Source of the DNA: Candidatus Thorarchaeota archaeon
Lineage (GTDB): Archaea; Asgardarchaeota; Thorarchaeia; Thorarchaeales; Thorarchaeaceae
DNA length: 35,867 nucleotides
Direction of reading: 5' to 3'
NCBI GenBank assembly: GCA_048882385.1
Contig: JBHLRQ010000010.1
Location: 15,950-51,816, forward strand
Shown: in pieces, positions 2,312 to 35,380 of the stretch
Layout of the letters: each line of letters begins with the position of its first letter
Numbering within the stretch: position 1 is the stretch's first letter
Notes under the pieces: model-generated
Seen by the model: only the letters and a program-made list of their open reading frames with translations
The model's database searches: none
What the model was told of the DNA's origin: nothing
Position numbers and translations under genes: made by a program

Positions 2312-3604
2312 ATGACAAAGGAAGGGGAATCGCAAGAGAGGAAAAGAAAAACATCAGAGATTGGTATATGGTATTATTGTGTGCTATTCATTGGGCTAGC
2401 GTTCGTAGTTCTGGCTGTTCAGCTATATGGCCATCCTAGTGATGAGCCAATCACACAGACTGAGATTCTTACTGTGGTCTTCGTTTCCCTATTTGGTGTG
2501 ATAATAGCCATGTGTTGTATATCTTTTCCTTGTGAAACAAGAAAAGCGATATTACCACGCAAACCCGCAGAAAGAAGAGATTTGTTTGCGTCTGAAAGAA
2601 CAAAAAGGCTAGATATTGATAATGAAAGGAAACGAGTATTTCAATCTGAGAGGAGGAAGCTAGAGTACGAATATCAAAGAGCTAGTGAAATACCACGAGT
2701 GACTGTTAGGAAATCGCCGCCAGTAAGACCAAAGAAGCCTATACCTGGAGTGACACATGCCATAACAGATGTAAGAAAAGAACCTCCACGGAAAACAGAG
2801 GAGGGTGTGGAGGTCCGAAGGGGTGGTGAATTCATTGGCAATCGAATGAGATTCAAGGTGAAGGTGTTGAATGATTCACCATTCACCATTACAGATGTAA
2901 CCGTGTATCTCCTGTCATATCCAAAAGATGCTCTAAGATTTGCAGGTGAAGACCATGATACATTCTTCGCAAAGATAGAACCAGAAGGTTTTAGGAGTCC
3001 AACATTTGATTTTCTGCCTACGCAAGATTGTGTCAAGGGTGAGATAGTTGCAGGAGTATCCTATATGGACATGCGAGGAAAGCCACACACTCTCACGACA
3101 AAACCCTTTGTCATCAGATCTGTTTGTGATTTACTAATCCCTCAGCAAGTTTCGCCACAAGACTTCCAATTGAAACTAAAGGAATTAGAATGTGGTGAGA
3201 TTGTAATCAAAATACAAGAATGGACACCTGAGGAGATGTTCGAGAAATCACTTAGAATAGTAGATGAGTCAAACTTTTTTGAAGTCAGTAGCGACACTGA
3301 GGAAGCTGACGGTGTGTTCTTCGGAACCATTGTTGGTTTCGCTAAAGGAAAATACACGGGCAAAGATGTGGGTGTTGAGATTACAGTAACAGGGCCAAGC
3401 GGTGTGAAAGGTGCATCTTGCACTATACAAGTATCCGGTGAAGATCAAGCTATGATCCTCCCTGCAATTGATGACCTTCGTGAGCGACTCAGTGCTTGGC
3501 TATGTCCGATGTGCTCAAGTCCTTTGACTCTTGCAAATGTTGAAGAACTAAGGAAAGGCAAAGCTGTAGTATGCCCATTCTGCGGGGTTTCAATAGGTCG
3601 GTAG
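2312..3604 (+). CDS. Membrane protein: 2 N-terminal TM helices, charged linker, coatomer/adaptin appendage-like module (beta-sandwich + platform), C-terminal Zn ribbon
   Basis: Two hydrophobic helices in the first ~75 aa; C-terminal 262 aa colinear with 4650..5765; CPMC...CPFC ribbon. Appendage call rests on by-eye resemblance to the beta-COP C-terminus. Confidence 0.7.
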   Translation: MTKEGESQERKRKTSEIGIWYYCVLFIGLAFVVLAVQLYGHPSDEPITQTEILTVVFVSLFGVIIAMCCISFPCETRKAILPRKPAERRDLFASERTKRLDIDNERKRVFQSERRKLEYEYQRASEIPRVTVRKSPPVRPKKPIPGVTHAITDVRKEPPRKTEEGVEVRRGGEFIGNRMRFKVKVLNDSPFTITDVTVYLLSYPKDALRFAGEDHDTFFAKIEPEGFRSPTFDFLPTQDCVKGEIVAGVSYMDMRGKPHTLTTKPFVIRSVCDLLIPQQVSPQDFQLKLKELECGEIVIKIQEWTPEEMFEKSLRIVDESNFFEVSSDTEEADGVFFGTIVGFAKGKYTGKDVGVEITVTGPSGVKGASCTIQVSGEDQAMILPAIDDLRERLSAWLCPMCSSPLTLANVEELRKGKAVVCPFCGVSIGR

Positions 3605-3664
3605 TAAATCACCATTACTTGTTTTCGAATCATTATTAGGAAGGTTTCATACCTCACTGGCTTA

Positions 3665-4573
3665 ATGCAACTTGATCCATATGCTTTCGGAGTGCTCAGT
3701 GCTCTCGCTGCAACTATATTCTTTGGAGGTACAAATATTGTCTATCTCAAAATGAGCGAGGACATTGGAGTCTTGGACATCATGTTTACCCGAATATGGG
3801 TGAGTTTGCCACTAGCTTACATTTTTGCTGTAGGAGCTGTAGGAAATTTTGATATCGCAATCCCTATGGATGCTATGATACCTCTAGCATTCTCAATGAT
3901 AATCGGAATCATGATTGGGGATGGGATGTACTTTCTTAGTCAGCATCGAATTGGAGTATCAAGAGCCTTTCCTATTGCCATGAGTTATCCGCTTCTTGTT
4001 TATGTCCTCACTGCACTGTTTCTAGAAGAACCAGTGATTCTTCAACGAATTATTGGAGCAATCATTGCTGTAGTTGGTGTCGGCTTAATTGCGCGAGCAG
4101 GAGAAACTGAAAATTTGAATAATGGGGCTAGATGGGAAGAAAGAGACGTTCAAATCGGCTTTGTGTTAGCTATACTCACTGCAATTTGTTGGGCAATCAG
4201 TGATGCAACATTTCAGTTCGGTATGATAACTGTAGGTGCAGCGGAAAGCAATTTCTTCAGGCTACTTGTTGCATCAGCAATTCTTGTTCCAGTTTTCATT
4301 GCATCACTCAAGGGTGGACGGAAATTACCATCAAAACGAATTGCTGGACTAGCGCTTCTGACGGGACTCTTTGGTATCGGATTTAGTCTCATCACATACA
4401 GCTACGCGGTAAAATTCATAGGAGCTACTGTAACAGCTGTTATAGTCGCGGCTGCACCTGTCTTCACCGCTCCAATCTCAGCTTTTTATCTTGGTGAAGT
4501 AGTCAATAGAAAAGTAGGTCTTGGTACCATCCTGACGATTTTAGGAGTAATACTTGTCGTATTCCTATTTTGA
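3665..4573 (+). CDS. EamA/DMT-family transporter
   Basis: 302 aa, about 10 TM helices in two homologous halves; motifs IGVSRAFPIAMSYPL..LFLEE and IGATVTAVIVAAAPVF..YLGE. Confidence 0.9.
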   Translation: MQLDPYAFGVLSALAATIFFGGTNIVYLKMSEDIGVLDIMFTRIWVSLPLAYIFAVGAVGNFDIAIPMDAMIPLAFSMIIGIMIGDGMYFLSQHRIGVSRAFPIAMSYPLLVYVLTALFLEEPVILQRIIGAIIAVVGVGLIARAGETENLNNGARWEERDVQIGFVLAILTAICWAISDATFQFGMITVGAAESNFFRLLVASAILVPVFIASLKGGRKLPSKRIAGLALLTGLFGIGFSLITYSYAVKFIGATVTAVIVAAAPVFTAPISAFYLGEVVNRKVGLGTILTILGVILVVFLF

Positions 4574-4649: not shown

Positions 4650-5765
4650 TTGATTCCTGGAGATACATCATCATTCGCCTTGAACATAATACCGATAGTA
4701 ATCATCATCATTACCATCGTATTTGCATTCTACATTTGCGGAGGGGATACAAGATCGGAACCAATTCCAAAAGCACTAAGAGATGAATATGGTATCCATA
4801 TGGAAACAATGGCTACTGGCTCTCGCTCGATGCCATGGATTGTATATCCTACTGAACGAATTGCAACCGCTGATAGACTACGAAAGAAACCCATCTCTGG
4901 TGTTTCAAAAGCAGTAACGGTTGTCAAGAGACCAACTGCACTTTACGGTAGAAAGCAAAAAGAAGTTGTTGAAGCTCGTCGCGGTGGAGAGTTCATTGGA
5001 AATCGAATGCGGTTCAAGGTCAAGGTTCTAAACCAAACCAAGTATACAATCACTGATGTCACTGTATTCCTCATATCTTATCCCACTGAGGCTCTGAAAA
5101 TTGGTAGTGACCATCATTCTGTACGATTTCCAAAGATTGAACCTGAGGGATTTAGGAGTCCAGCTTTTGATTTCTTACCGACACAAGATTGTGTAAAGGG
5201 CGAGATTGTAGCTGGTGTATCGTACATCGATTATTTAGGGAAACCTCATACACTCAACACCAAACCGTTCGTAATCAGGTCTGTCTGTGATTTGCTTATA
5301 CCAGACAAAATAACAGCTGAAGAGTTCGAACTAAAACTGAAAGATCTAGAGTGTGGGGAGCTGCTTGTAAAAGTTGTAGAATGGACACCTGAGGAGATGT
5401 ACGAAAAATCGCTGAGAATTCTTGAAGATGCTAATTTCTATGAGGTGAGTAGTGAGATATCGGAATCAGATAACACAACTTTTGCCAAGATAACTGGTTT
5501 TGCAAAAGGAAAGTATACAGGAAAAGAAATAGGAGTCAAAATCAGTATTTCCGGTTCGACAAAGGAGGCAGGTGCATCTTGCACAATTCAGGTTTCAGGA
5601 GAGGATCAGGCAATGATACTCCCTGCAATCGATGATTTGCGAGAGAGACTTAGTGCGTGGTTATGCCCCAATTGCTCGAGTCCATTGAGTCTTGAAAATG
5701 TTGAAAAATTAAGAGAAGGACATGTCGTTAAATGCTCATTCTGTAGTGTGTCTATAGGGAGATAA
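4650..5765 (+). CDS. Paralogue of 2312..3604: single N-terminal TM helix, appendage-like module, C-terminal Zn ribbon
   Basis: TM helix IIPIVIIIITIVFAFYIC; long identical blocks with the upstream paralogue (RRGGEFIGNRMRFKVKVLN, FDFLPTQDCVKGEIVAGVSY, GASCTIQVSGEDQAMILPAIDDLRERLSAWLCP); CPNC...CSFC. Confidence 0.7.
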   Translation: MIPGDTSSFALNIIPIVIIIITIVFAFYICGGDTRSEPIPKALRDEYGIHMETMATGSRSMPWIVYPTERIATADRLRKKPISGVSKAVTVVKRPTALYGRKQKEVVEARRGGEFIGNRMRFKVKVLNQTKYTITDVTVFLISYPTEALKIGSDHHSVRFPKIEPEGFRSPAFDFLPTQDCVKGEIVAGVSYIDYLGKPHTLNTKPFVIRSVCDLLIPDKITAEEFELKLKDLECGELLVKVVEWTPEEMYEKSLRILEDANFYEVSSEISESDNTTFAKITGFAKGKYTGKEIGVKISISGSTKEAGASCTIQVSGEDQAMILPAIDDLRERLSAWLCPNCSSPLSLENVEKLREGHVVKCSFCSVSIGR

Positions 5766-5975
5766 CACACATTCGTTAGTATTGATTCTAGTAAATCCAA
5801 ATTTAGGAGCTTCTCGTTTACACGATAAACAGAGAGAGAAGAATCGAACTCCTAAGGCTCGTAGTAAATCATTGTATGCGACATTCAGACCAAGGTCTAA
5901 ATGAATCACAAAATGAAAATAATTCATACAAAGGTTAATCTGATTAGATAGTGATAACATCATGAGTGAGGTAAG

Positions 5976-6614
5976 GTGGAGATTCTCGATTTCTTCTTAA
6001 TAGCAATCGGAGCAGTGACACTCTTTGAAGCAGCAACAAGACTTGACATGATACGTGCAGCTAATGAATTCAAGAAATCATTTCTCGGAGCTCAGGAAGT
6101 TGGTAGCTACGAAAATAGCACTTCTTACAAGATTATGATGAAACCGTTAAATCGTGCATCATGGAATCCTGGAATTGGGTCATATTTAAACGATAGACCA
6201 ATTCTCCTATTTTTGGGGGTTATTGTAATTCTGGCAATAGCTGGTGAAGCAATAGGATTAGCCATGGTATATCCGAAGCTTACTATTGTATTTCTAGGTG
6301 GTGTCTTTGCTATTGCATTACACAACGGTCCAGATAAAATAAACATTGAAGAAAATTACCTGCAGCAGATTATTGATGAGGAGATAACCACAATGAATGG
6401 CCATGACCAGAATTATCTCACAGCTGCAATCTCTGAATTTAGAGGTTGGTCGTTCATGCAAGGATTCTTTGGATTTTGCATTTTAGTTGCAGCCTTTCTA
6501 CCACCATGGTTTCTACTAGCTGATTCAATATTGATTGCCGTACTTGGACTACTTTATCTTGGTAGTAAGTACTCAATTCATCGGGGAGTGTTTGGAGAAG
6601 CTCCGAAAATATGA
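5976..6614 (+). CDS. Hypothetical multi-pass membrane protein
   Basis: GTG start after GAGGT; about 5 hydrophobic segments. Confidence 0.75.
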   Translation: MEILDFFLIAIGAVTLFEAATRLDMIRAANEFKKSFLGAQEVGSYENSTSYKIMMKPLNRASWNPGIGSYLNDRPILLFLGVIVILAIAGEAIGLAMVYPKLTIVFLGGVFAIALHNGPDKINIEENYLQQIIDEEITTMNGHDQNYLTAAISEFRGWSFMQGFFGFCILVAAFLPPWFLLADSILIAVLGLLYLGSKYSIHRGVFGEAPKI

Positions 6615-28157: not shown

Positions 28158-29072
28158 GTGCCAAAGGCAATTCACTCGATATGGTGGGATGATAATCTCG
28201 GACCTTCAGTAGGACGGTCATATCCCGAAACAGAATCATTGACTGGGGAAGAAGCTCTGATTGTTTTCATGGGACATGGAGTGAACAGGGAAGCAGAAGT
28301 TGGATATTCAAAATTACCTCGTGGATTAGTCATTTCCTATATGAAACCACCAAACTGTATAGTAATCCATCTGAATGAAGATGAAAACGCAGCAGTTATT
28401 GAGAGAAATCTTCTGAGACTTGTGAAGTATATTGATTTCAATAGTGATACATGGGATAGAGAACTGCAGCGTGCCTTTGAACTGCTGAAAGAACTTATTG
28501 ATGAAACAAGTGGAGCTGAGCTGCTCACAAATCCCTCTGTCCAGAAGCTTGTTGAAGATATGACTACTAATAGAGTGAATGCAATCACTCCCAAACATGT
28601 CCTTCGTGTTTCAGTTAGATATCCTGATGCTCAGGACTACTTCGGGTCCGATGATGCAGAAGTCATTAGGATGTTAAAAGATCTAGAAGATGAATCCATT
28701 CTTGAGTCGCGTACGTTTGGAAGAAGAGTCGAATGTAGACAGTGCGGAGACTCAGATTTAACAATTGAACTCCTCTGTCCGAGTTGTGATTCCGCAGACA
28801 TTCACAAAGTCTACACCCTTTTCTGCCCTAAATGCAGTAATCAATTTCATGCAGTTATGCAAGAGGATATTGCTGAAGTTGCTTGTCAACACTGTAAAGA
28901 ACCTGTGAAAGTTGGAGAACTCGGAGTGATTGATGTTGAACCTCTGTGTAACAAATGTGGAACAGCATCAAATGATCCTAGAATCGTTTTCCGATGTGCA
29001 ACATGTGGCAAGCGTCTACAGGGTGCTGACTTGCTAGCAGGAACTGGACTTGCTTACTATTGGAAAAAGTGA
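28158..29072 (+). CDS. uDENN/longin-like N-terminal domain fused to a multi-Zn-ribbon (TackOD1-like) domain
   Basis: SIWWDDNLGPSVGRSYP opening motif; MLKDLEDESILES helix-strand, then six CxxC pairs. Confidence 0.65.
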   Translation: MPKAIHSIWWDDNLGPSVGRSYPETESLTGEEALIVFMGHGVNREAEVGYSKLPRGLVISYMKPPNCIVIHLNEDENAAVIERNLLRLVKYIDFNSDTWDRELQRAFELLKELIDETSGAELLTNPSVQKLVEDMTTNRVNAITPKHVLRVSVRYPDAQDYFGSDDAEVIRMLKDLEDESILESRTFGRRVECRQCGDSDLTIELLCPSCDSADIHKVYTLFCPKCSNQFHAVMQEDIAEVACQHCKEPVKVGELGVIDVEPLCNKCGTASNDPRIVFRCATCGKRLQGADLLAGTGLAYYWKK

Positions 29073-29126: not shown

Positions 29127-29993
29127 ATGTCAGTAACTACAATTAATGTAGGGGTCATTAAGCTTGGTGCGATAGCCTCGGCTCCTCTTCTCGATTTAAT
29201 ATTTGATGAACGCGCAGAACGTGATGATATCAATGTTCGGGCTTTCACAAGTGGTGCAAAAATGGATGAAGAGTCAAGCAAGTCACCTGCCGAATCGGTA
29301 ATCGCATGGGCACCTCACCTTGTGCTTGTTGTAAGTCCGAATGCTGCATTACCTGGTCCTACAAAGGTCAGAGAGATGTTGGCTGAAGCTAAGATTCCAA
29401 CCATATCAATCTCCGATGGTCCAGCTGAAAAGGCATTCTATAAAAAGGATGATGAGGGGAAGAAGAAACCTCATGTTCTTGATGGCCAAGGCTTCATCAT
29501 CATTCCAGCAGATTCTATGATTGGTGCAAAGAAGGAATTCCTGGATCCAACAGAGATGTCGCTATTCAATGCAGATGCGATAAAGGTACTTTCAATCACT
29601 GGGGTTGTGAGAGCTATCCAGAATGAGTTGGATAAAGTAATTGCTACACTTCAGGCTGGTGAAGCTACAGAGATGCCTATGTTAAAACTGACTGCTGAGA
29701 AAGCTGTCAATTGTGGGTATTTCAAAAATCCGTACGCCAAAGCAAAGGCCATCGCAGCATTGACAATTTCAGAAGCTGTTGCTGAAATAACTGCAAAAGG
29801 TTGTTTCAAGACAAAGGAAGCTGAGGATTACATCCCATTAGTAGCAGCTGGTCATGAGATGATGAGAATCGCAGCAATACTAGCAGATGAAATCAGAGAA
29901 CTAGAGAAGTCAGAGGATTCCGTGGTTAGAAATCCACATGTTTCCAAGGGCAAAGTAAAATCAAAGACTGCACTGATGGAGAAGCCGAAGTAG
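29127..29993 (+). CDS. mtd: F420-dependent methylene-tetrahydromethanopterin dehydrogenase
   Basis: KLGAIA..LLDLIFDERAERDDI..SGAKM, SPNAALPGP, ADSMIGAKKEFLDPTEMSLFNADAIKVL, NPYAKAKA, AAGHEMMR. Confidence 0.95.
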   Translation: MSVTTINVGVIKLGAIASAPLLDLIFDERAERDDINVRAFTSGAKMDEESSKSPAESVIAWAPHLVLVVSPNAALPGPTKVREMLAEAKIPTISISDGPAEKAFYKKDDEGKKKPHVLDGQGFIIIPADSMIGAKKEFLDPTEMSLFNADAIKVLSITGVVRAIQNELDKVIATLQAGEATEMPMLKLTAEKAVNCGYFKNPYAKAKAIAALTISEAVAEITAKGCFKTKEAEDYIPLVAAGHEMMRIAAILADEIRELEKSEDSVVRNPHVSKGKVKSKTALMEKPK

Positions 29994-30001
29994 CGGGTCA
30001 A

Positions 30002-31570
30002 CTACTTCTTCTTCTTCACACTCTTCTTTACGACTTTCCTGGCATCCTTCAGGATCTTCTCAGCACGAGCTACACTCAGCCCATCAATTTTCTGGGCGAG
30101 TCTTTGAGCAGATTCTCCAGCTAACTGAGCGGCGGATTCGTACCCCGCCGCATTCAGCTTTTTCTCAAGACTTTCACCAATCCCAGGTACTCTTCTGAGA
30201 GGAAGCATATCCTTGAAATTTTCGCCGAGGATAGCATCCATTTCTGAATCACTTAAATCAGTTCCAGCATCCATGATATCAATCTGACTTCGAATAGATG
30301 CGAAATCATCTGCTCTAACAAATGCATCTACTGTTCGTTTTACTTGTCGCTCATCAAAATCAAAGTCAAGGTCTTCCATCTCGATTTCTCTTCCAAGTGT
30401 AGTTGGTAACGGTCCTGTCAGATAGAGAGCACCAAGAGAAAGTAGAATCGCAACCTGTCCACCTACTTCTGGAAGCCACCAAGGAAGATCAAAAACAATT
30501 CCAAGCAATTCGATTTGTAATTCCAAAGCCCAAAAGAGGGTCATATACCCCAAAAAGAAGAACCAATACAAAGAGAGACGGAATCCTTTCGTTTTCACAG
30601 GGCCAAGTTCAGGCCATATTAATAGTAAACAAAGCCCAAGCAAGTATCCTTCAACTAACCTCTCTGAAATCAGTAGTAGAAAAAGGTAGTCTAGGCCATA
30701 CAGTGTTGAACCAAAGATGGTTAGAAGCCCCATAAGGAGAATCACAAATCGAAATGCAGTTTTTCTTCCTAGTCGATCGGACATGATTCCTGCAAGAATA
30801 ATGGCAAAAACAAAGGGAACATACTCAAGAAAACCAATATTGACAGAATTGCTGAGTGACACAAAAGTTGGATCTGCTGAAAGTTCATGCTTGGTGACAA
30901 GATACCAGAGTAAATGAGCACCCATAATCAGAGTAGTAGGAATGAAGTATTTGAAAGAACTACCTGCAATTGTTAATGAGGCACGAGCAACTTTCCAGGG
31001 TCTAAACGTAGCTGAAATTATCATAGCAACTAGTGAAACGAAGGCCGGCAATAGTATAGTATTTTGAAAAGCTGCTATGATTGACAGGCTATCAAAAAAA
31101 GTGAATAGAACATATACAAAAACAGCTAAGGCTAGAAAGCTAGATACTGTCCTTCCCCGAAATCGCACGACGACACTCTGATTTATTCGAGCTGACCAAG
31201 ATATCAACATCAGAGCAAGGCAGCAAAAAGTCATTGTTGTGAGTAGTATTGGATAGATGTCCAAGAAGTCAGGAAAAACATCAAGAAAACTGAGAATTCC
31301 AATAAGACTTGGTAGCAGTGCTCCTAAATACATTAGAAAATCATGTCTTCTGACTCTATCAACAAGAAGACCTGAGAGAGGTAATGCAAAGGTTGCTGCA
31401 AGAGCCCCATAACCTAGAAGTCCATGATGTTCGAGAATAGTTAGACCTAGGAAGCCAAACAAATTACCTGACAAAAGACCTGTGATTACATAGATAGAAA
31501 GTGCCATTGGAACTGCCACTAGCACATAGATGAACATTGTCTTCCAAGGAAATTCTCTGTACTCCAACAT
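30002..31570 (-). CDS. MFS-fold membrane protein fused to a C-terminal helix-hairpin-helix domain
   Basis: About 12 TM helices with GLLVDRVRR and GIMSDRLGRK loops; tail LRRVPGIGESLEKKLNAAGY...IDGLSVARAEKILKDA. Confidence 0.8.
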   Translation of the reverse strand: MLEYREFPWKTMFIYVLVAVPMALSIYVITGLLSGNLFGFLGLTILEHHGLLGYGALAATFALPLSGLLVDRVRRHDFLMYLGALLPSLIGILSFLDVFPDFLDIYPILLTTMTFCCLALMLISWSARINQSVVVRFRGRTVSSFLALAVFVYVLFTFFDSLSIIAAFQNTILLPAFVSLVAMIISATFRPWKVARASLTIAGSSFKYFIPTTLIMGAHLLWYLVTKHELSADPTFVSLSNSVNIGFLEYVPFVFAIILAGIMSDRLGRKTAFRFVILLMGLLTIFGSTLYGLDYLFLLLISERLVEGYLLGLCLLLIWPELGPVKTKGFRLSLYWFFFLGYMTLFWALELQIELLGIVFDLPWWLPEVGGQVAILLSLGALYLTGPLPTTLGREIEMEDLDFDFDERQVKRTVDAFVRADDFASIRSQIDIMDAGTDLSDSEMDAILGENFKDMLPLRRVPGIGESLEKKLNAAGYESAAQLAGESAQRLAQKIDGLSVARAEKILKDARKVVKKSVKKKK

Positions 31571-31688
31571 GATTCTCGCCTACTTCCCTTTCCGAGTTGA
31601 AATTCAGAAAAGGATATGGATGTTTCGGGGTGTATGCGATATCTTAAAGACCCTTCAGAATCTGGACTGAAACAAGGAGATATGCTAC

Positions 31689-32597
31689 TTGGCTGGAAAA
31701 CTTGGTGTCCATGAATTCATGGTTCTTACTGCAGGAGGAAGTCCAATCTTCCACTATTCAGTAACAGAGGAACGAAAACTGGACGAATTGCTTTCAGGTT
31801 TTCTAAGTGCAATTACAAGTTTTGCATCTGAGTTTGGAGAGAAATCAATTCAGAGTCTTTCCTTTGAAGGTTCTGAGCTTCTTTACGAGCAGTTTGGATC
31901 AGAATACCTCTTCATCTTCCTAGTTGAATCAGGTTCATCTGAAAAGGTTTTGAGAGCGGTTCTTCGGGAGCTGAGTAAAAGATTTCTGTCAAGATATCAA
32001 AACGAATTACGAATGGACATTCCAGTACTTGATGTCTTCTTTGATTTTGAGAATGAGGTTCGCAGTGTCTTCACATATTATGAGGAGGTACTTGTTGTCA
32101 CATCAAGTCTGAGCTCTTTTGTGATTCCTAGGTTGATGAAAGATAACTTAAATCTTGCAATAAAATCGGGTGTGTTCCTAGATGAGTTCCATCGAGATTT
32201 AGGAGGATCAGGAAATCGTATTCTTTCGGCAATCGATGGAAAGACATCAATCTATGATATGGGTAGAAATCTTGGCGTATCTGATGAAGAGATATCTGAT
32301 GTTGTGGAATACCTCGCAATCAGAGGACTCCTGAAAATTTCAAAACTATGTCCTGTGATAAAACATAATGACAGCAGGTTTGATGCATATCTGGACTTGA
32401 TTGGCTTACCCAGCAAGGATTATCAGTTATTGGAACGCGCAAAGTTGCTATGTAACGGGGATCGCTCACTAGTTGAAGTGAGTGAGAGACTGGGAGTCGT
32501 TCCAGAGAGATTGTATGAGGTCTTCGAGAAATTAGGTGATGAAATAGGATGGAATCTTGTTGAAGTTAGCGGCCTTGTAGATGATTTAACAACCTGA
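31689..32597 (+). CDS. Longin domain + two winged-helix domains
   Basis: Longin-type FMVLTAGGSPIFHYS...LLSGFLSAITSFASEF...LFIFLV..LRELSKRFLSRY; wHTH ILSAIDGKTSIYDMGRNLG..LAIRGLL and LCNGDRSLVEVSERLG. TTG start after AGGAG. Confidence 0.75.
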   Translation: MAGKLGVHEFMVLTAGGSPIFHYSVTEERKLDELLSGFLSAITSFASEFGEKSIQSLSFEGSELLYEQFGSEYLFIFLVESGSSEKVLRAVLRELSKRFLSRYQNELRMDIPVLDVFFDFENEVRSVFTYYEEVLVVTSSLSSFVIPRLMKDNLNLAIKSGVFLDEFHRDLGGSGNRILSAIDGKTSIYDMGRNLGVSDEEISDVVEYLAIRGLLKISKLCPVIKHNDSRFDAYLDLIGLPSKDYQLLERAKLLCNGDRSLVEVSERLGVVPERLYEVFEKLGDEIGWNLVEVSGLVDDLTT

Positions 32598-32678
32598 TAA
32601 CTCCACTACTTTTGTGACAAAGGTATTAAATTGGTTCAGTCAAAACGGAAAGCGGCCGTATGACTAGGAGGCCACCAG

Positions 32679-33956
32679 TTGGTAAAAGAGATAGTTGTAC
32701 TACGTGATTCTGGCATATTGCTGTTTCATTATAGTGTAAGTGGAACACGTAAACTAGATGAGTTGGCAGCTGCATTTCTTTCTGCAGTTGGTTCTTTTGC
32801 CAAAGAGGTGAGCCAAGACAGAATTACAGTGATGTCATTCGAGACAAACAAATTGGTTTGGGAGAGAAAAGGAGACCTGTATTTCATTGCCCTTGTATCC
32901 GAAGAAGATAGCGGCGAGATACATCGTGTTATCCTACAGGACCTAGCAGACCAATTCGTTAGTATATTCTATTCTGAGATTATGAAAGAACTTCCAAACT
33001 CGAAAAAATTCAGACCTTTTGCTGATATAGTTGAAGTCACATTACAGAAATTTAATGGGATTCCCGGCTTGGCACGTCGATATAAGACGATACTTCTCCC
33101 TGCTGCAGAATTGAACAAGTTGAAGGAAATTCTAGCTGAGGTTGAGGTAAATCGTGATATCCTACGGGGTGGGATGGTTACTACAGATGGATATGTAGCA
33201 GTATCCAATTTGAGAGCCTACGAACTTGAGGCAGTCTTGGATTTCGTACCTACATTGAAAGAGAAGGTTGAGATGAAAGAACACTCTAGTCTTGACAAAA
33301 ATACATCAATCATGATGATACAACTTCCCAAGAAGGGAGTCGTTGCATTTGTTGTCAAACTTGGATTATCAGAGAAAACATACCTTGAGCTAGTAAATCC
33401 CTTCATCTCGTTGCTGCAACTTACAAGTTTCGCAGACGCAAGGAAATTTGAACCTGATAAAATAGAAGGTCCAATCTCGTTCTATGATTACGACACAGTT
33501 GAAGCAACAATGTCTAGTGAGGATCTGAGAAGAGAAACAAAGATGGCACTATCATCGTTCTCTGAGAGTGTGCAATCCGGTGCAATGCGCATGGTAAATG
33601 CCATCCATGAAACATCAACAGTATCAGAGATACATGAAGCAAGTGGTTTGATTCGAGAACAAGCAGATGAGATTCTCGCACAACTTATTGCCAAAGGTAT
33701 AGTTCGAATTGTGAAACTATTCCCAGTCATGGAAGATAGAGATGAGCGATTTGTGGCATATTTGGAAGTCATAGGAATTAAGAAAAGAGACTTTGAGGTA
33801 GTTGAGTCAATCTGGAAATACTGCAATGGTAGCCTCTCACTTAGAGAAATAGAAGAGAGATCTGACATTCCAGCATCCAGGATAATCGAAGTCCTCAGAG
33901 AATTAGGAAATCATGTAAAATGGCCAAAAGAACGGGTGCTTAGTCATGTCAGGTAA
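32679..33956 (+). CDS. Longin domain + roadblock-like domain + two winged-helix domains
   Basis: IVVLRDSGILLFHYS..KLDELAAAFLSAVGSFAKEV (paralogous to the upstream gene); central LKEILAEV..ILRGGMVTTDGYVAVSNL; TVSEIHEASG..LIAKGIV and YCNGSLSLREIEERS. TTG start after GGAGG. Confidence 0.75.
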   Translation: MVKEIVVLRDSGILLFHYSVSGTRKLDELAAAFLSAVGSFAKEVSQDRITVMSFETNKLVWERKGDLYFIALVSEEDSGEIHRVILQDLADQFVSIFYSEIMKELPNSKKFRPFADIVEVTLQKFNGIPGLARRYKTILLPAAELNKLKEILAEVEVNRDILRGGMVTTDGYVAVSNLRAYELEAVLDFVPTLKEKVEMKEHSSLDKNTSIMMIQLPKKGVVAFVVKLGLSEKTYLELVNPFISLLQLTSFADARKFEPDKIEGPISFYDYDTVEATMSSEDLRRETKMALSSFSESVQSGAMRMVNAIHETSTVSEIHEASGLIREQADEILAQLIAKGIVRIVKLFPVMEDRDERFVAYLEVIGIKKRDFEVVESIWKYCNGSLSLREIEERSDIPASRIIEVLRELGNHVKWPKERVLSHVR

Positions 33957-34698
33957 AATAGTATCAATTCACAGTTTTAGAGGAGGGACAGGTAAATCCA
34001 ATATAGCTGCGAATCTCGCTGCAGCTGTGGCGCTTGATGGAAAAAGAGTAGCAGTTATGGACACAGATATGGCATCACCAGGAATACATGTCATATTTGG
34101 AATGGGTCGGGAGAAGATGAAGTACACCCTCAATGACTATCTGAGGGGTTCATGTGATATTACAGATGCCTGTGTTGATTTGACAGATAGGTTGAGTATC
34201 AAGGGAGGGAAACTGTTTTTGATTCCAAGCTCAATGGCAGCCACTGACATTACAAGGATTCTCAGAGAAGGCTATGAGGTTGGGGACTTGAAGAAAGGTT
34301 TCACAGATGTGATCAAGAAGAAAGACCTAGATTATCTCATCATTGATACACATCCAGGTTTGGATAGAGAGACCTTGCTTTCAATGGCCACGGCAGATTA
34401 CTTGTTTGTTGTTGCTAGAATCGATGAACAAGACCTTCTAGGAACAGCTGCTACACTAAGTGTTGCTCGGAAACTTCAGGTTCCAGATATCAAGATCATT
34501 ATCAATAAAAAACCAGGCATATATGAGAACAAAGCGATTATCAAAGAGGTTGAACAGAAGTTCAAGACCAGTGTTGCTACTATCATCCCGTTACTCCCTC
34601 TGCTTATTGAAGCGGGTAGTCGCTATGTTGTAACTTTACGTCATCCTGATAGCGAATTCACAAAGAATGTTGAAGAAATCTATCGAATGATGAAATGA
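33946..34698 (+). CDS. MinD/ParA-family ATPase
   Basis: IVSIHSFRGGTGKSN, RVAVMDTD..SPG, DYLIIDTHPG, IINK; start overlaps the previous gene by 11 nt. Confidence 0.9.
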   Translation: MSGKIVSIHSFRGGTGKSNIAANLAAAVALDGKRVAVMDTDMASPGIHVIFGMGREKMKYTLNDYLRGSCDITDACVDLTDRLSIKGGKLFLIPSSMAATDITRILREGYEVGDLKKGFTDVIKKKDLDYLIIDTHPGLDRETLLSMATADYLFVVARIDEQDLLGTAATLSVARKLQVPDIKIIINKKPGIYENKAIIKEVEQKFKTSVATIIPLLPLLIEAGSRYVVTLRHPDSEFTKNVEEIYRMMK

Positions 34699-34705
34699 TG
34701 ATGGA

Positions 34706-34822
34706 TTAAATTAATCTTGGTATGTAGATAAGCGCGAGTGCAAGTAAGAGAATAATCAGACATACCACAAGTAATAGTGGTAGAAGGTCTGATTGTCCGT
34801 CATCGACTCTTTTCATTTCCAT
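34706..34822 (-). CDS. Small (38 aa) single-TM protein, not in the ORF track
   Basis: MEMKRVDDGQSDLLPLLLVVCLIILLLALALIYIPRLI*; AGGA 6 nt upstream; fills the intergenic gap without overlaps. Confidence 0.55.
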   Translation of the reverse strand: MEMKRVDDGQSDLLPLLLVVCLIILLLALALIYIPRLI

Positions 34823-34933: not shown

Positions 34934-35380
34934 ATGGACATCGATGTAAGATTAGCAACAGCTTCAGACCGGTCTCTCATTGAGGAGTTTTATGTTCGAG
35001 AGAGAAAGAATTTTCAAAAGATGGTAATTCAATCGTCTGCAACTCCTGTTGGTGCGAGTATCGAAACAATGTTTGTCATAGCTGCCACAAAGAGCATGGT
35101 AGTAGCTGCATTGAAACTTGATGTTGCTAAAGATCCTGCTCTTGGTCGAGTGGGATTTATCAAGCACTTTGAGATTGAGGATGCCCTCGAAGATTCAGAC
35201 ATAGGTCTTCGGATGCTTGAAAAAACTAGTGAGATTGCTGACGATAAGGGTCTCAGAGCGTTGGATGCAATTTTTGATGTATCGAGAGCTGACCTTTTCG
35301 ATTTATTCACTGAATCGGGCTATGTAGAAGAGCGGAAAGAGGTCTGCCTCAGAAAAGATTTTGGGCTTAGAGTATTCTAA
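34934..35380 (+). CDS. GNAT-family N-acetyltransferase-like protein
   Basis: VRLATASD start, MFVIAA..VVAALKL, GFIKHFEI, degenerate motif A (EDSDIGLRML), LFTESGY; strong SD AGGAGG. Confidence 0.75.
   Translation: MDIDVRLATASDRSLIEEFYVRERKNFQKMVIQSSATPVGASIETMFVIAATKSMVVAALKLDVAKDPALGRVGFIKHFEIEDALEDSDIGLRMLEKTSEIADDKGLRALDAIFDVSRADLFDLFTESGYVEERKEVCLRKDFGLRVF

Follow-up and report, generated by a model that had tools for sequence, protein, structure and literature searches.

Eukaryotic and bacterial longin/roadblock platforms serve small GTPases, and the question raised by the locus described here is whether a platform of this kind could serve an ATPase. The locus lies in a stretch of 35,867 nucleotides, below called the window, from a Candidatus Thorarchaeota archaeon (Asgardarchaeota; GenBank assembly GCA_048882385.1, contig JBHLRQ010000010.1, positions 15,950 to 51,816), which is part of a 3.7-Mb, 95%-complete metagenome-assembled genome. 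Three consecutive open reading frames (ORFs) on the plus strand encode two paralogous proteins, LngS and LngL, and an ATPase of the MinD/ParA superfamily. The reading favoured here, with chances that appear evenly balanced, is that the two proteins, as a longin/roadblock-winged-helix platform, regulate or position the ATPase together with a transporter-like membrane protein, in a lineage-specific and vertically inherited cellular role. The operon contains the following features.

31689..32597, plus strand: LngS, 302 amino acids, with a predicted longin domain at about residues 7-139 (nt 31707-32105)
32166-32573, plus strand: the two predicted winged helices of LngS, at about residues 160-225 and 226-295
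32679..33956, plus strand: LngL, 425 amino acids, with a predicted longin domain at residues 1-135 (nt 32679-33083)
33102-33422, plus strand: predicted roadblock-topology domain of LngL, residues 142-248
33516-33938, plus strand: the two predicted winged helices of LngL, residues 280-420
33946..33956, plus strand: 11-nt overlap, ATGTCAGGTAA, between the end of LngL and the beginning of the ATPase gene, read from the sequence
33946..34698, plus strand: MinD/ParA-superfamily ATPase, 250 amino acids, isoelectric point (pI) 8.7

Both longin genes start with TTG, and a strong ribosome-binding motif, AGGAG/AGGAGG, stands 7-9 nt ahead of each. A preliminary description of this DNA had proposed that the two adjacent genes are paralogues with a common N-terminal domain and a common tandem pair of C-terminal winged helix-turn-helix (wHTH) domains. 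This is borne out by two separate BLASTP blocks, one covering the N-terminal domains (34% identity, E 4e-21) and the other the tandem winged-helix blocks (29% identity, E 9e-22), between which LngL carries about 140 additional residues. When alignments of the N-terminal domains, made of orthologues from 40 related loci and leaving out two rows with an internal stop, were compared by hhalign, they matched with a probability of 99.9 (E 2.2e-36). The motifs quoted in the description are present in the translations of LngS and LngL and the 11-nt overlap with the ATPase gene was confirmed in the sequence. The description of the genes was thus right as far as it went; it overlooked the middle domain of LngL, an arginine in the Walker A motif of the ATPase and a conserved membrane neighbour.

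The AlphaFold2 model of LngS (mean predicted local distance difference test score, pLDDT, 82.6; predicted template modelling score, pTM, 0.77) has the strand (b) and helix (a) order bb-a-bbb-a-a, followed by two winged helices. DSSP assigned the strands (E) and helices (H) of its longin domain to E7-14, E19-24, H30-49, E55-59, E62-69, E73-80, H85-102 and H120-139. The model of LngL (pLDDT 79.1, pTM 0.42) consists of a longin domain, a middle domain in the order a-bb-a-bbb-a, which is a roadblock topology, and two winged helices; the arrangement of these domains is uncertain because of the pTM of 0.42. Residue K58 of LngL is invariant in the alignment. According to DSSP, the longin order b-b-a-b-b-b-a(-a) is present in both predicted models, and Foldseek matched LngS with the longin domains of VAMP7, Sec22b, sigma-adaptin and SRX at target-normalised template modelling (TM) scores of 0.52-0.68. 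The N-terminal domains of both proteins, whose fold the preliminary description had singled out for checking, are therefore predicted to be longin domains, and the predicted architectures are longin plus two winged helices in LngS and longin, roadblock-topology domain plus two winged helices in LngL.

Pfam models captured these domains in part. Fuz_longin_1 scored 25.8 bits with LngS against a cut-off of 26.1, and 20.9 bits with LngL. TrmB exceeded its cut-off in LngL (42.5 bits), and TrmB and HTH_47 remained below theirs in LngS. Each of the four winged-helix domains has an acidic isoelectric point (pI 4.6-5.6), as expected for protein binding rather than DNA binding. A search of proteins of 537-2000 amino acids with the LngS profile retrieved no fused form at E <=0.001, which is weak evidence.

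In a Foldseek comparison of the LngS model with the PDB, the top 11 matches were NPRL2/NPRL3 (Npr2/Npr3) chains of GATOR1/SEA (E 1.7e-7 to 1.7e-5), and single longin domains ranked after them. For LngL, the best matches were Fuzzy-Inturned, Mon1-Ccz1 and BLOC-3 (E 4e-9 to 5e-7), followed by SEA/GATOR1. Judged by these predicted models, the best PDB matches of both proteins are subunits of paired longin platforms acting on GTPases, and the NPRL2/NPRL3-like layout first suggested for the operon agrees with the matches of LngS over its whole length. The likeness is fainter in the sequences. The Pfam models NPR2 (PF06218) and NPR3 did not match LngS or LngL at E values up to 1; HTH_NPRL3 was matched below its cut-off by 7/25 members of the LngS family and 16/39 of the LngL family. 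Two distant relatives gave matches to HTH_NPRL3 (E 4.5e-5) and, in protein P0153, to the C-terminal end of NPR2 (E 6.9e-4; 18.9 bits, the cut-off being 27.5). A resemblance to a segment of NPRL2, proposed in the preliminary description, stood only in the form of a faint match between the LngS profile and the NPRL2 chain 6ces_N among the PDB sequences (E 0.26). The single LngS sequence did not match this chain, and the C-terminal half of LngS alone matched no NPRL among the PDB chain sequences.

The ATPase passes the Pfam cut-offs of AAA_31 (65.2 bits), ParA (58.0) and CbiA (51.8). None of the NCBIfam MinD/ParA models was passed, the best being minD_arch with 85 bits against a cut-off of 201.75. 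Among solved structures, Archaeoglobus MinD-1 (1hyq, E 1.5e-16) is closest in sequence. The variant of the deviant Walker A motif in the ATPase of the window reads HSFRGGTGKSN (residues 9-19, nt 33970-34002), and the switch and Walker B motifs are DTD (residues 39-41) and DTHPG (residues 134-138). All three motifs are invariant in 32/32 aligned orthologues, so that GKS, D39/D41 and D134 are kept throughout, and in the same 32/32 sequences the signature lysine of K-G-G-x-x-G-K-[ST] is replaced by an invariant arginine (R12). In Soj and MinD, the signature lysine contacts the nucleotide of the opposite subunit across the dimer. The invariant arginine at this position therefore suggests that the ATPase retains a dimer-dependent step in a modified form.

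How firmly the ATPase is tied to the longin genes can be judged from other genomes of the phylum, 300 of which were searched, many of them incomplete. Orthologues were accepted at E <=1e-50 for the ATPase and at a best E <=1e-86 for LngS. A single copy of the ATPase was found in 62/76 genomes of the family of the window (f1), in the one genome of family f2 (1/1), in 17/19 genomes of family f12 and in the one Helarchaeota genome (f28, 1/1), and in 0/203 genomes of 26 other families. LngS orthologues occur in f1 only (60/76 genomes, by row count), and full-length LngL orthologues in f1, f2 and f12. Loci were compared for 28 genomes of f1 and 12 of f2/f12. In 20/28 f1 loci, the three genes LngS, LngL and ATPase follow one another directly, neither gap exceeding 300 bp. 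Among the 23 f1 loci in which both LngL and the ATPase were called, the gap between them is -11 in nine and <=17 nt in 21. In f2/f12, where LngS is absent from the loci, LngL and the ATPase are adjacent in 11/12 loci; in the twelfth (L061), an ATPase match stands directly behind LngL and is broken off by the contig end. The coupling to a MinD/ParA ATPase that had been proposed from the window thus recurs as LngL-ATPase adjacency in three archaeal families, and this gene link is real and old.

The chromosomal neighbourhood is constant across genera, and the ATPase is its most conserved gene in 23/23 f1 loci. The median identity to the window within f1 is 81% for the ATPase, 57% for LngS, 55% for a TackOD1 protein encoded nearby, 48% each for LngL and the downstream orf148, and 42% for the membrane protein. 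A quick tree of 64 rows placed LngS in one clade (Shimodaira-Hasegawa-like approximate likelihood ratio test support 96) and LngL of f1 and f12 in another (90), the base being without resolution. The computation shows directly that LngS and LngL are paralogues, which folds are predicted for them, how the genes are ordered, conserved and distributed, and that the motifs of the ATPase are invariant.

The operon is interrupted or displaced in some genomes. Insertions of 1.2-3.7 kb occur in genus g6 and two other genomes, and in one genome the ATPase lies on a separate contig. In g6 (L057, L075, L078), about 3.6 kb separate LngS from LngL in two genomes. In G075 (L075, G075:C6 3614-3751), a remnant of the C-terminal part of LngL stands directly upstream of the ATPase, the intact LngL being 3.3 kb away. 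The LngS orthologues of L046 (G242) and L050 (G146) contain one internal stop codon each, and the ATPase match of L046 is shortened to residues 1-164; these defects may reflect decay of the module or assembly error.

On the other side of LngS stands the membrane neighbour, with a shared intergenic region.

30002..31570, minus strand: polytopic membrane protein, 522 amino acids, resembling transporters of the major facilitator superfamily (MFS), with a cytosolic C-terminal tail (residues 400-522) that carries a helix-hairpin-helix (HhH)
31571..31688: 118 bp that separate LngS from the divergent membrane-protein gene, the presumed promoter region of both

Pfam assigned HHH_5 to residues 458-512 of this protein (E 1.3e-7) and gave a weak MFS_1 match. 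By its features in the ESM Atlas, the protein is nearest to its own Thorarchaeota cluster, in which 97% of the members carry HHH_5, and next nearest to archaeal MFS clusters (0.94-0.95). The gene is divergent from the first longin gene in 28/28 f1 and 10/11 f12 loci, at a spacing of 113-209 bp in 25/28 of the f1 loci. The f12 proteins have an identity of 24-30%, and no such protein was found in the one f2 locus. The membrane protein is a candidate membrane partner of the module.

In the mechanism proposed here, LngL, alone or paired through its longin domain with LngS, would bind the ATP-bound ATPase and set its nucleotide cycle or its location. Parallels for such a mechanism are MglB-MglA, the conservon roadblock/DUF742-CvnD system, NPRL2-NPRL3-RagA and MinE-MinD. 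The invariant arginine would act across the dimer interface of a dimerising SIMIBI ATPase, the transporter-like membrane protein would be the likely membrane site or input of the system, and the output would be signalling or positioning, not defence. The eukaryotic look-alikes, together with the tandem paralogy, suggest by analogy that LngS and LngL form a heterodimer. A complex prediction of LngS and LngL with the ATPase partner, run without controls, gave a score of 0.00 against a mark of 0.32, which says nothing either way.

The known systems resemble the module to different extents. With NPRL2-NPRL3 it has in common that the longin domain comes first, that winged-helix-type domains are C-terminal and that two paralogues stand side by side. 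It differs in that the linked NTPase of the operon is a MinD/ParA-type ATPase and that LngL has a roadblock-type insert, and no DEPDC5-like or Rag-type GTPase gene is present among the eight conserved neighbours. The tri-longin Rab guanine nucleotide exchange factors (Mon1-Ccz1, Fuzzy-Inturned/CPLANE, HPS1-HPS4/BLOC-3) likewise have a longin domain followed by a second longin/roadblock-type domain and work as paralogue pairs, and Fuz_longin_1 is the best Pfam longin model for LngS and LngL. They contain three such domains, whereas LngL has two and then two winged helices, and no Rab-like GTPase is linked to the operon in the window. In the MglA-MglB and conservon systems (CvnB roadblock, CvnC DUF742, CvnD GTPase), roadblock-type and small HTH-like regulators of an NTPase switch are encoded in the same operon; roadblock and DUF742 proteins are described as regulators of a small GTPase in actinobacterial conservons (PMC13343842, PMC13621833, PMC11343762), and Foldseek listed MglB as a match of the LngS longin domain. 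A Ras-like GTPase acts as the NTPase there and each regulator is a small protein of its own, whereas in the window the regulatory parts are fused into one chain and the NTPase is of MinD/ParA type; no Ras-like small GTPase gene occurs in the conserved neighbourhood. This resemblance is one of working principle only. MinD itself shares with the ATPase the Pfam fold family and a small, stand-alone, basic build. The differences are the arginine in place of the signature lysine and the scores below cut-off in every NCBIfam MinD/ParA model, and neither MinE nor MinC is linked to the ATPase locus.

A bolder version of the favoured reading sees in the module an archaeal counterpart of lysosomal nutrient sensing, in which the transporter-like membrane protein, as a 'transceptor', would recruit an NPRL2/NPRL3-like longin/roadblock platform for switching an NTPase, and the dimeric SIMIBI ATPase would take the role of the Rag GTPase dimer. 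This is quite unlikely; if it were true, the logic of longin platforms would be older than its commitment to small GTPases.

The relatives of the ATPase give a view of the company that this enzyme keeps. In the Helarchaeota genome (f28) and one related archaeon, an ATPase with an identical P-loop is followed by a 202-amino-acid protein made of a long helix and a winged helix. A metagenomic protein, P0200, fuses the ATPase with this wHTH partner (31% identity to the partner, E 2e-28). Of 99 longer relatives of the ATPase (35-52% identity), PF00072 is found in 75 and PF00027 in 8, and PF00512, PF00672 or PAS models occur in several. The source names of these relatives are response regulators and cyclic-nucleotide-binding proteins, and R-G-G-x-G-K-S was present in 7/7 that were inspected. 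In the two plasmid records inspected, stand-alone relatives lie among genes of Cache/HAMP and cyclic-nucleotide-binding proteins in Nostoc and among STAS and SpoIIE genes in Deinococcus. The longer relatives and these plasmid contexts indicate that this type of ATPase is habitually wired to sensor domains.

Both halves of the module are already in the literature. Asgard genomes contain well over a hundred longin/roadblock families, and an NPRL2-like family of the present organisation is found in most Thor metagenome-assembled genomes, NPRL2-like longins fused to two-component domains being reported as well (Liu et al., bioRxiv 10.1101/2020.10.19.343400). The accessible text of that preprint was not found to mention any ATPase alongside the NPRL2-like family. 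Longins of GTPase-activating-protein type have been linked to Asgard longins (PMC12290439, Traffic). A second preprint defines a ParA assemblage, ConB2, by an arginine in Walker A together with a PG motif, and describes a mostly archaeal ParA-wHTH system that is predicted to be immune and to coat invader DNA, the wHTH protein being sometimes fused to a profilin-longin-like domain; it also states that in some bacteria ParA takes the place of MglA beside MglB (10.64898/2026.10.19.760177). Going by the wording of this preprint, the invariant R12 and P137-G138 of the ATPase correspond to the ConB2 marks. The preliminary description knew of no report of such a system, and this has to be narrowed: the NPRL2-like Thor family and the archaeal ParA-wHTH/longin-like fusions are in print in these two preprints. 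The words ParA, MinD, ATPase, NPRL and winged are all absent as whole words from the available text of PMC10933270, and neither NPRL nor GATOR is treated in the preprint 10.64898/2026.10.28.762692.

Several points weigh against a longin platform acting on the ATPase. The contacts between the proteins, the pairing of LngS with LngL, the direction in which regulation would run and the role in the cell are all inferred from these data. The TM-scores of the Foldseek matches are low (0.21-0.34; 0.26-0.33 for LngS with NPRL chains), so that the matches of LngS and LngL concern domain content and order and not a rigid whole. In genus g12 (L042, L046), LngL is missing and the ATPase gene comes immediately after LngS; in f2/f12, LngL is the only one of the two beside the ATPase. 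Since some lineages keep one paralogue with the ATPase, the heterodimer is not obligatory; at its core the module combines the ATPase with a single longin-winged-helix protein, the paralogue pair being an elaboration of f1. The Helarchaeota ATPase, the nearest Asgard outgroup (49% identity), sits in a simple pair of ParA and helix-wHTH genes. The features that mark ConB2 in the ATPase, arginine in Walker A plus PG, are read as immune in the preprint that defines them (10.64898/2026.10.19.760177). The net acidic charge of the winged helices is compatible with DNA binding and does not exclude it, and the basic ATPase and the HhH motif of the membrane neighbour fit a DNA-related role.

These points lead to the rival explanations. 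The locus could be an immune system of the ParA-wHTH type, in which the winged helices recognise invader DNA, the ATPase multimerises on the DNA and the longin domains extend the assembly (10.64898/2026.10.19.760177). The two ConB2 marks of the ATPase speak for it, as do the Helarchaeota arrangement, the fusion protein P0200 and the profilin-longin-like domain that archaeal ParA-wHTH systems sometimes include. The likeness to the published system extends to an archaeal ATPase with arginine and PG beside one or more wHTH genes; in that system the wHTH protein is rapidly evolving, stands behind a long helix and is predicted to be immune (10.64898/2026.10.19.760177), whereas the partners in the window are encoded upstream, are conserved and have tandem NPRL-like winged helices in a syntenic, single-copy module. 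This module is near-universal in f1 and f12 in one fixed neighbourhood, and the ATPase is the slowest-evolving gene of the locus, the opposite of the 'rapidly evolving' character given in the preprint. The acidic winged helices of LngL have no detectable kinship with the Helarchaeota-type wHTH partner (hhalign probability 1.2), relatives of the ATPase were found in only 14/72,556 plasmid records (E <=1e-20), and no effector gene is linked. An immune function is thus unlikely. A role in DNA segregation or nucleoid anchoring, with the ATPase as ParA, LngL/LngS in the role of ParB and the HhH-tailed membrane protein as a tether for DNA, appears improbable too. Its attraction lies in a small ParA-type ATPase encoded behind HTH-type genes in one operon, which is the classical partition layout of type Ib par loci, in the basic ATPase (pI 8.7), in the HHH_5 motif of the neighbour, which is of a non-specific DNA-binding type, and in the chromosomal, single-copy and vertically inherited nature of the locus. 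The winged helices, on the other hand, are acidic and similar to protein-binding domains of the NPRL type, relatives of the ATPase are fused to signalling domains and not to partition proteins, and the ATPase sequence is nearer to MinD and Mrp/NBP35 structures than to ParA/Soj. None of the 203 genomes from 26 other Asgard families yielded the module, so it is not a general segregation system of the phylum.

LngS and LngL might also be ordinary transcription factors of the membrane-protein gene, with ligand-sensing longin domains and DNA-binding winged helices, the ATPase being merely co-transcribed. Pfam matches of TrmB, MarR, IclR and HTH_24 type on the winged helices and the divergent orientation from a transporter-like gene, a common layout of regulator and target, are what would be expected in this case. 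It would not be expected that LngL overlaps the ATPase gene or lies within 17 nt of it in most f1 loci and adjoins it across three families, nor that the ATPase gene has remained beside LngS in g12, where LngL has been lost; the winged helices have an acidic pI, and the proteins that match over the whole length are platform proteins, not regulators. An explanation by transcription factors only is highly unlikely, and it was rejected as the main explanation, since it leaves the kept overlap with the ATPase unexplained.

To our knowledge, partners are known for almost none of the Asgard longin/roadblock families. The pair described here has the layout of NPRL2/NPRL3, and old, tight gene linkage ties it to a single defined enzyme and a single defined membrane protein, so that three or four recombinant proteins would be enough to test the module. 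Should the longin platform regulate a MinD/ParA-type ATPase, longin/roadblock platforms would be general regulators of NTPases and not specific to GTPases, and the immune reading of this ATPase clade would not be valid for all its members.

Four further reading frames lie around the operon.

34709..34816, minus strand: candidate small ORF, 36 amino acids with one hydrophobic helix, convergent to and directly behind the ATPase gene
34934-35380, plus strand: orf148, 148 amino acids, without a Pfam match
29127-29993, plus strand: methylene-tetrahydromethanopterin dehydrogenase gene (Pfam MTD, E 7e-110)
28158-29072, plus strand: TackOD1 protein, 304 amino acids (Pfam TackOD1 output domain, 63.4 bits), with zinc ribbons

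Matches to the 36-amino-acid ORF were obtained by tblastn (E <=1e-3) in 11/40 loci, 10 of which have it no more than about 220 bp from the ATPase end, a count that the hydrophobic composition can inflate. It may encode a small membrane protein or be a chance match, and its membership of the module is uncertain. The orf148 gene is kept downstream of the ATPase in 18/28 f1 loci with 39-76% identity. The dehydrogenase gene, situated between the TackOD1 and membrane-protein genes, is there in some f1 loci only. The TackOD1 protein, syntenic in 26/28 f1 loci, has an N-terminal domain of 125 amino acids that starts with IWWDDNLGP and to which no family was assigned. Comparison of this domain with the longin profiles gave hhalign probabilities of 20.6 and 0.1, and its ESM Atlas matches lie at 0.80-0.81, one of the clusters carrying NPR2 on 19% of its members; the profile and Atlas comparisons are leads only.

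A second tandem pair of paralogues was observed elsewhere in the own genome (L081, G000:C84), on the minus strand at 4702-5520 (272 amino acids) and 5524-6402 (292 amino acids), with the same layout of longin domain and two winged helices. The LngS profile matches the 292-amino-acid protein with an hhalign probability of 84.8 (E 6.5e-6, 245 aligned columns). No ParA-type gene was found near this pair, which is flanked by a Roadblock/LC7 gene (3467-3859), two radical-SAM genes and a DUF2797 gene. Tandem pairs resembling this one recur in many f1 genomes.

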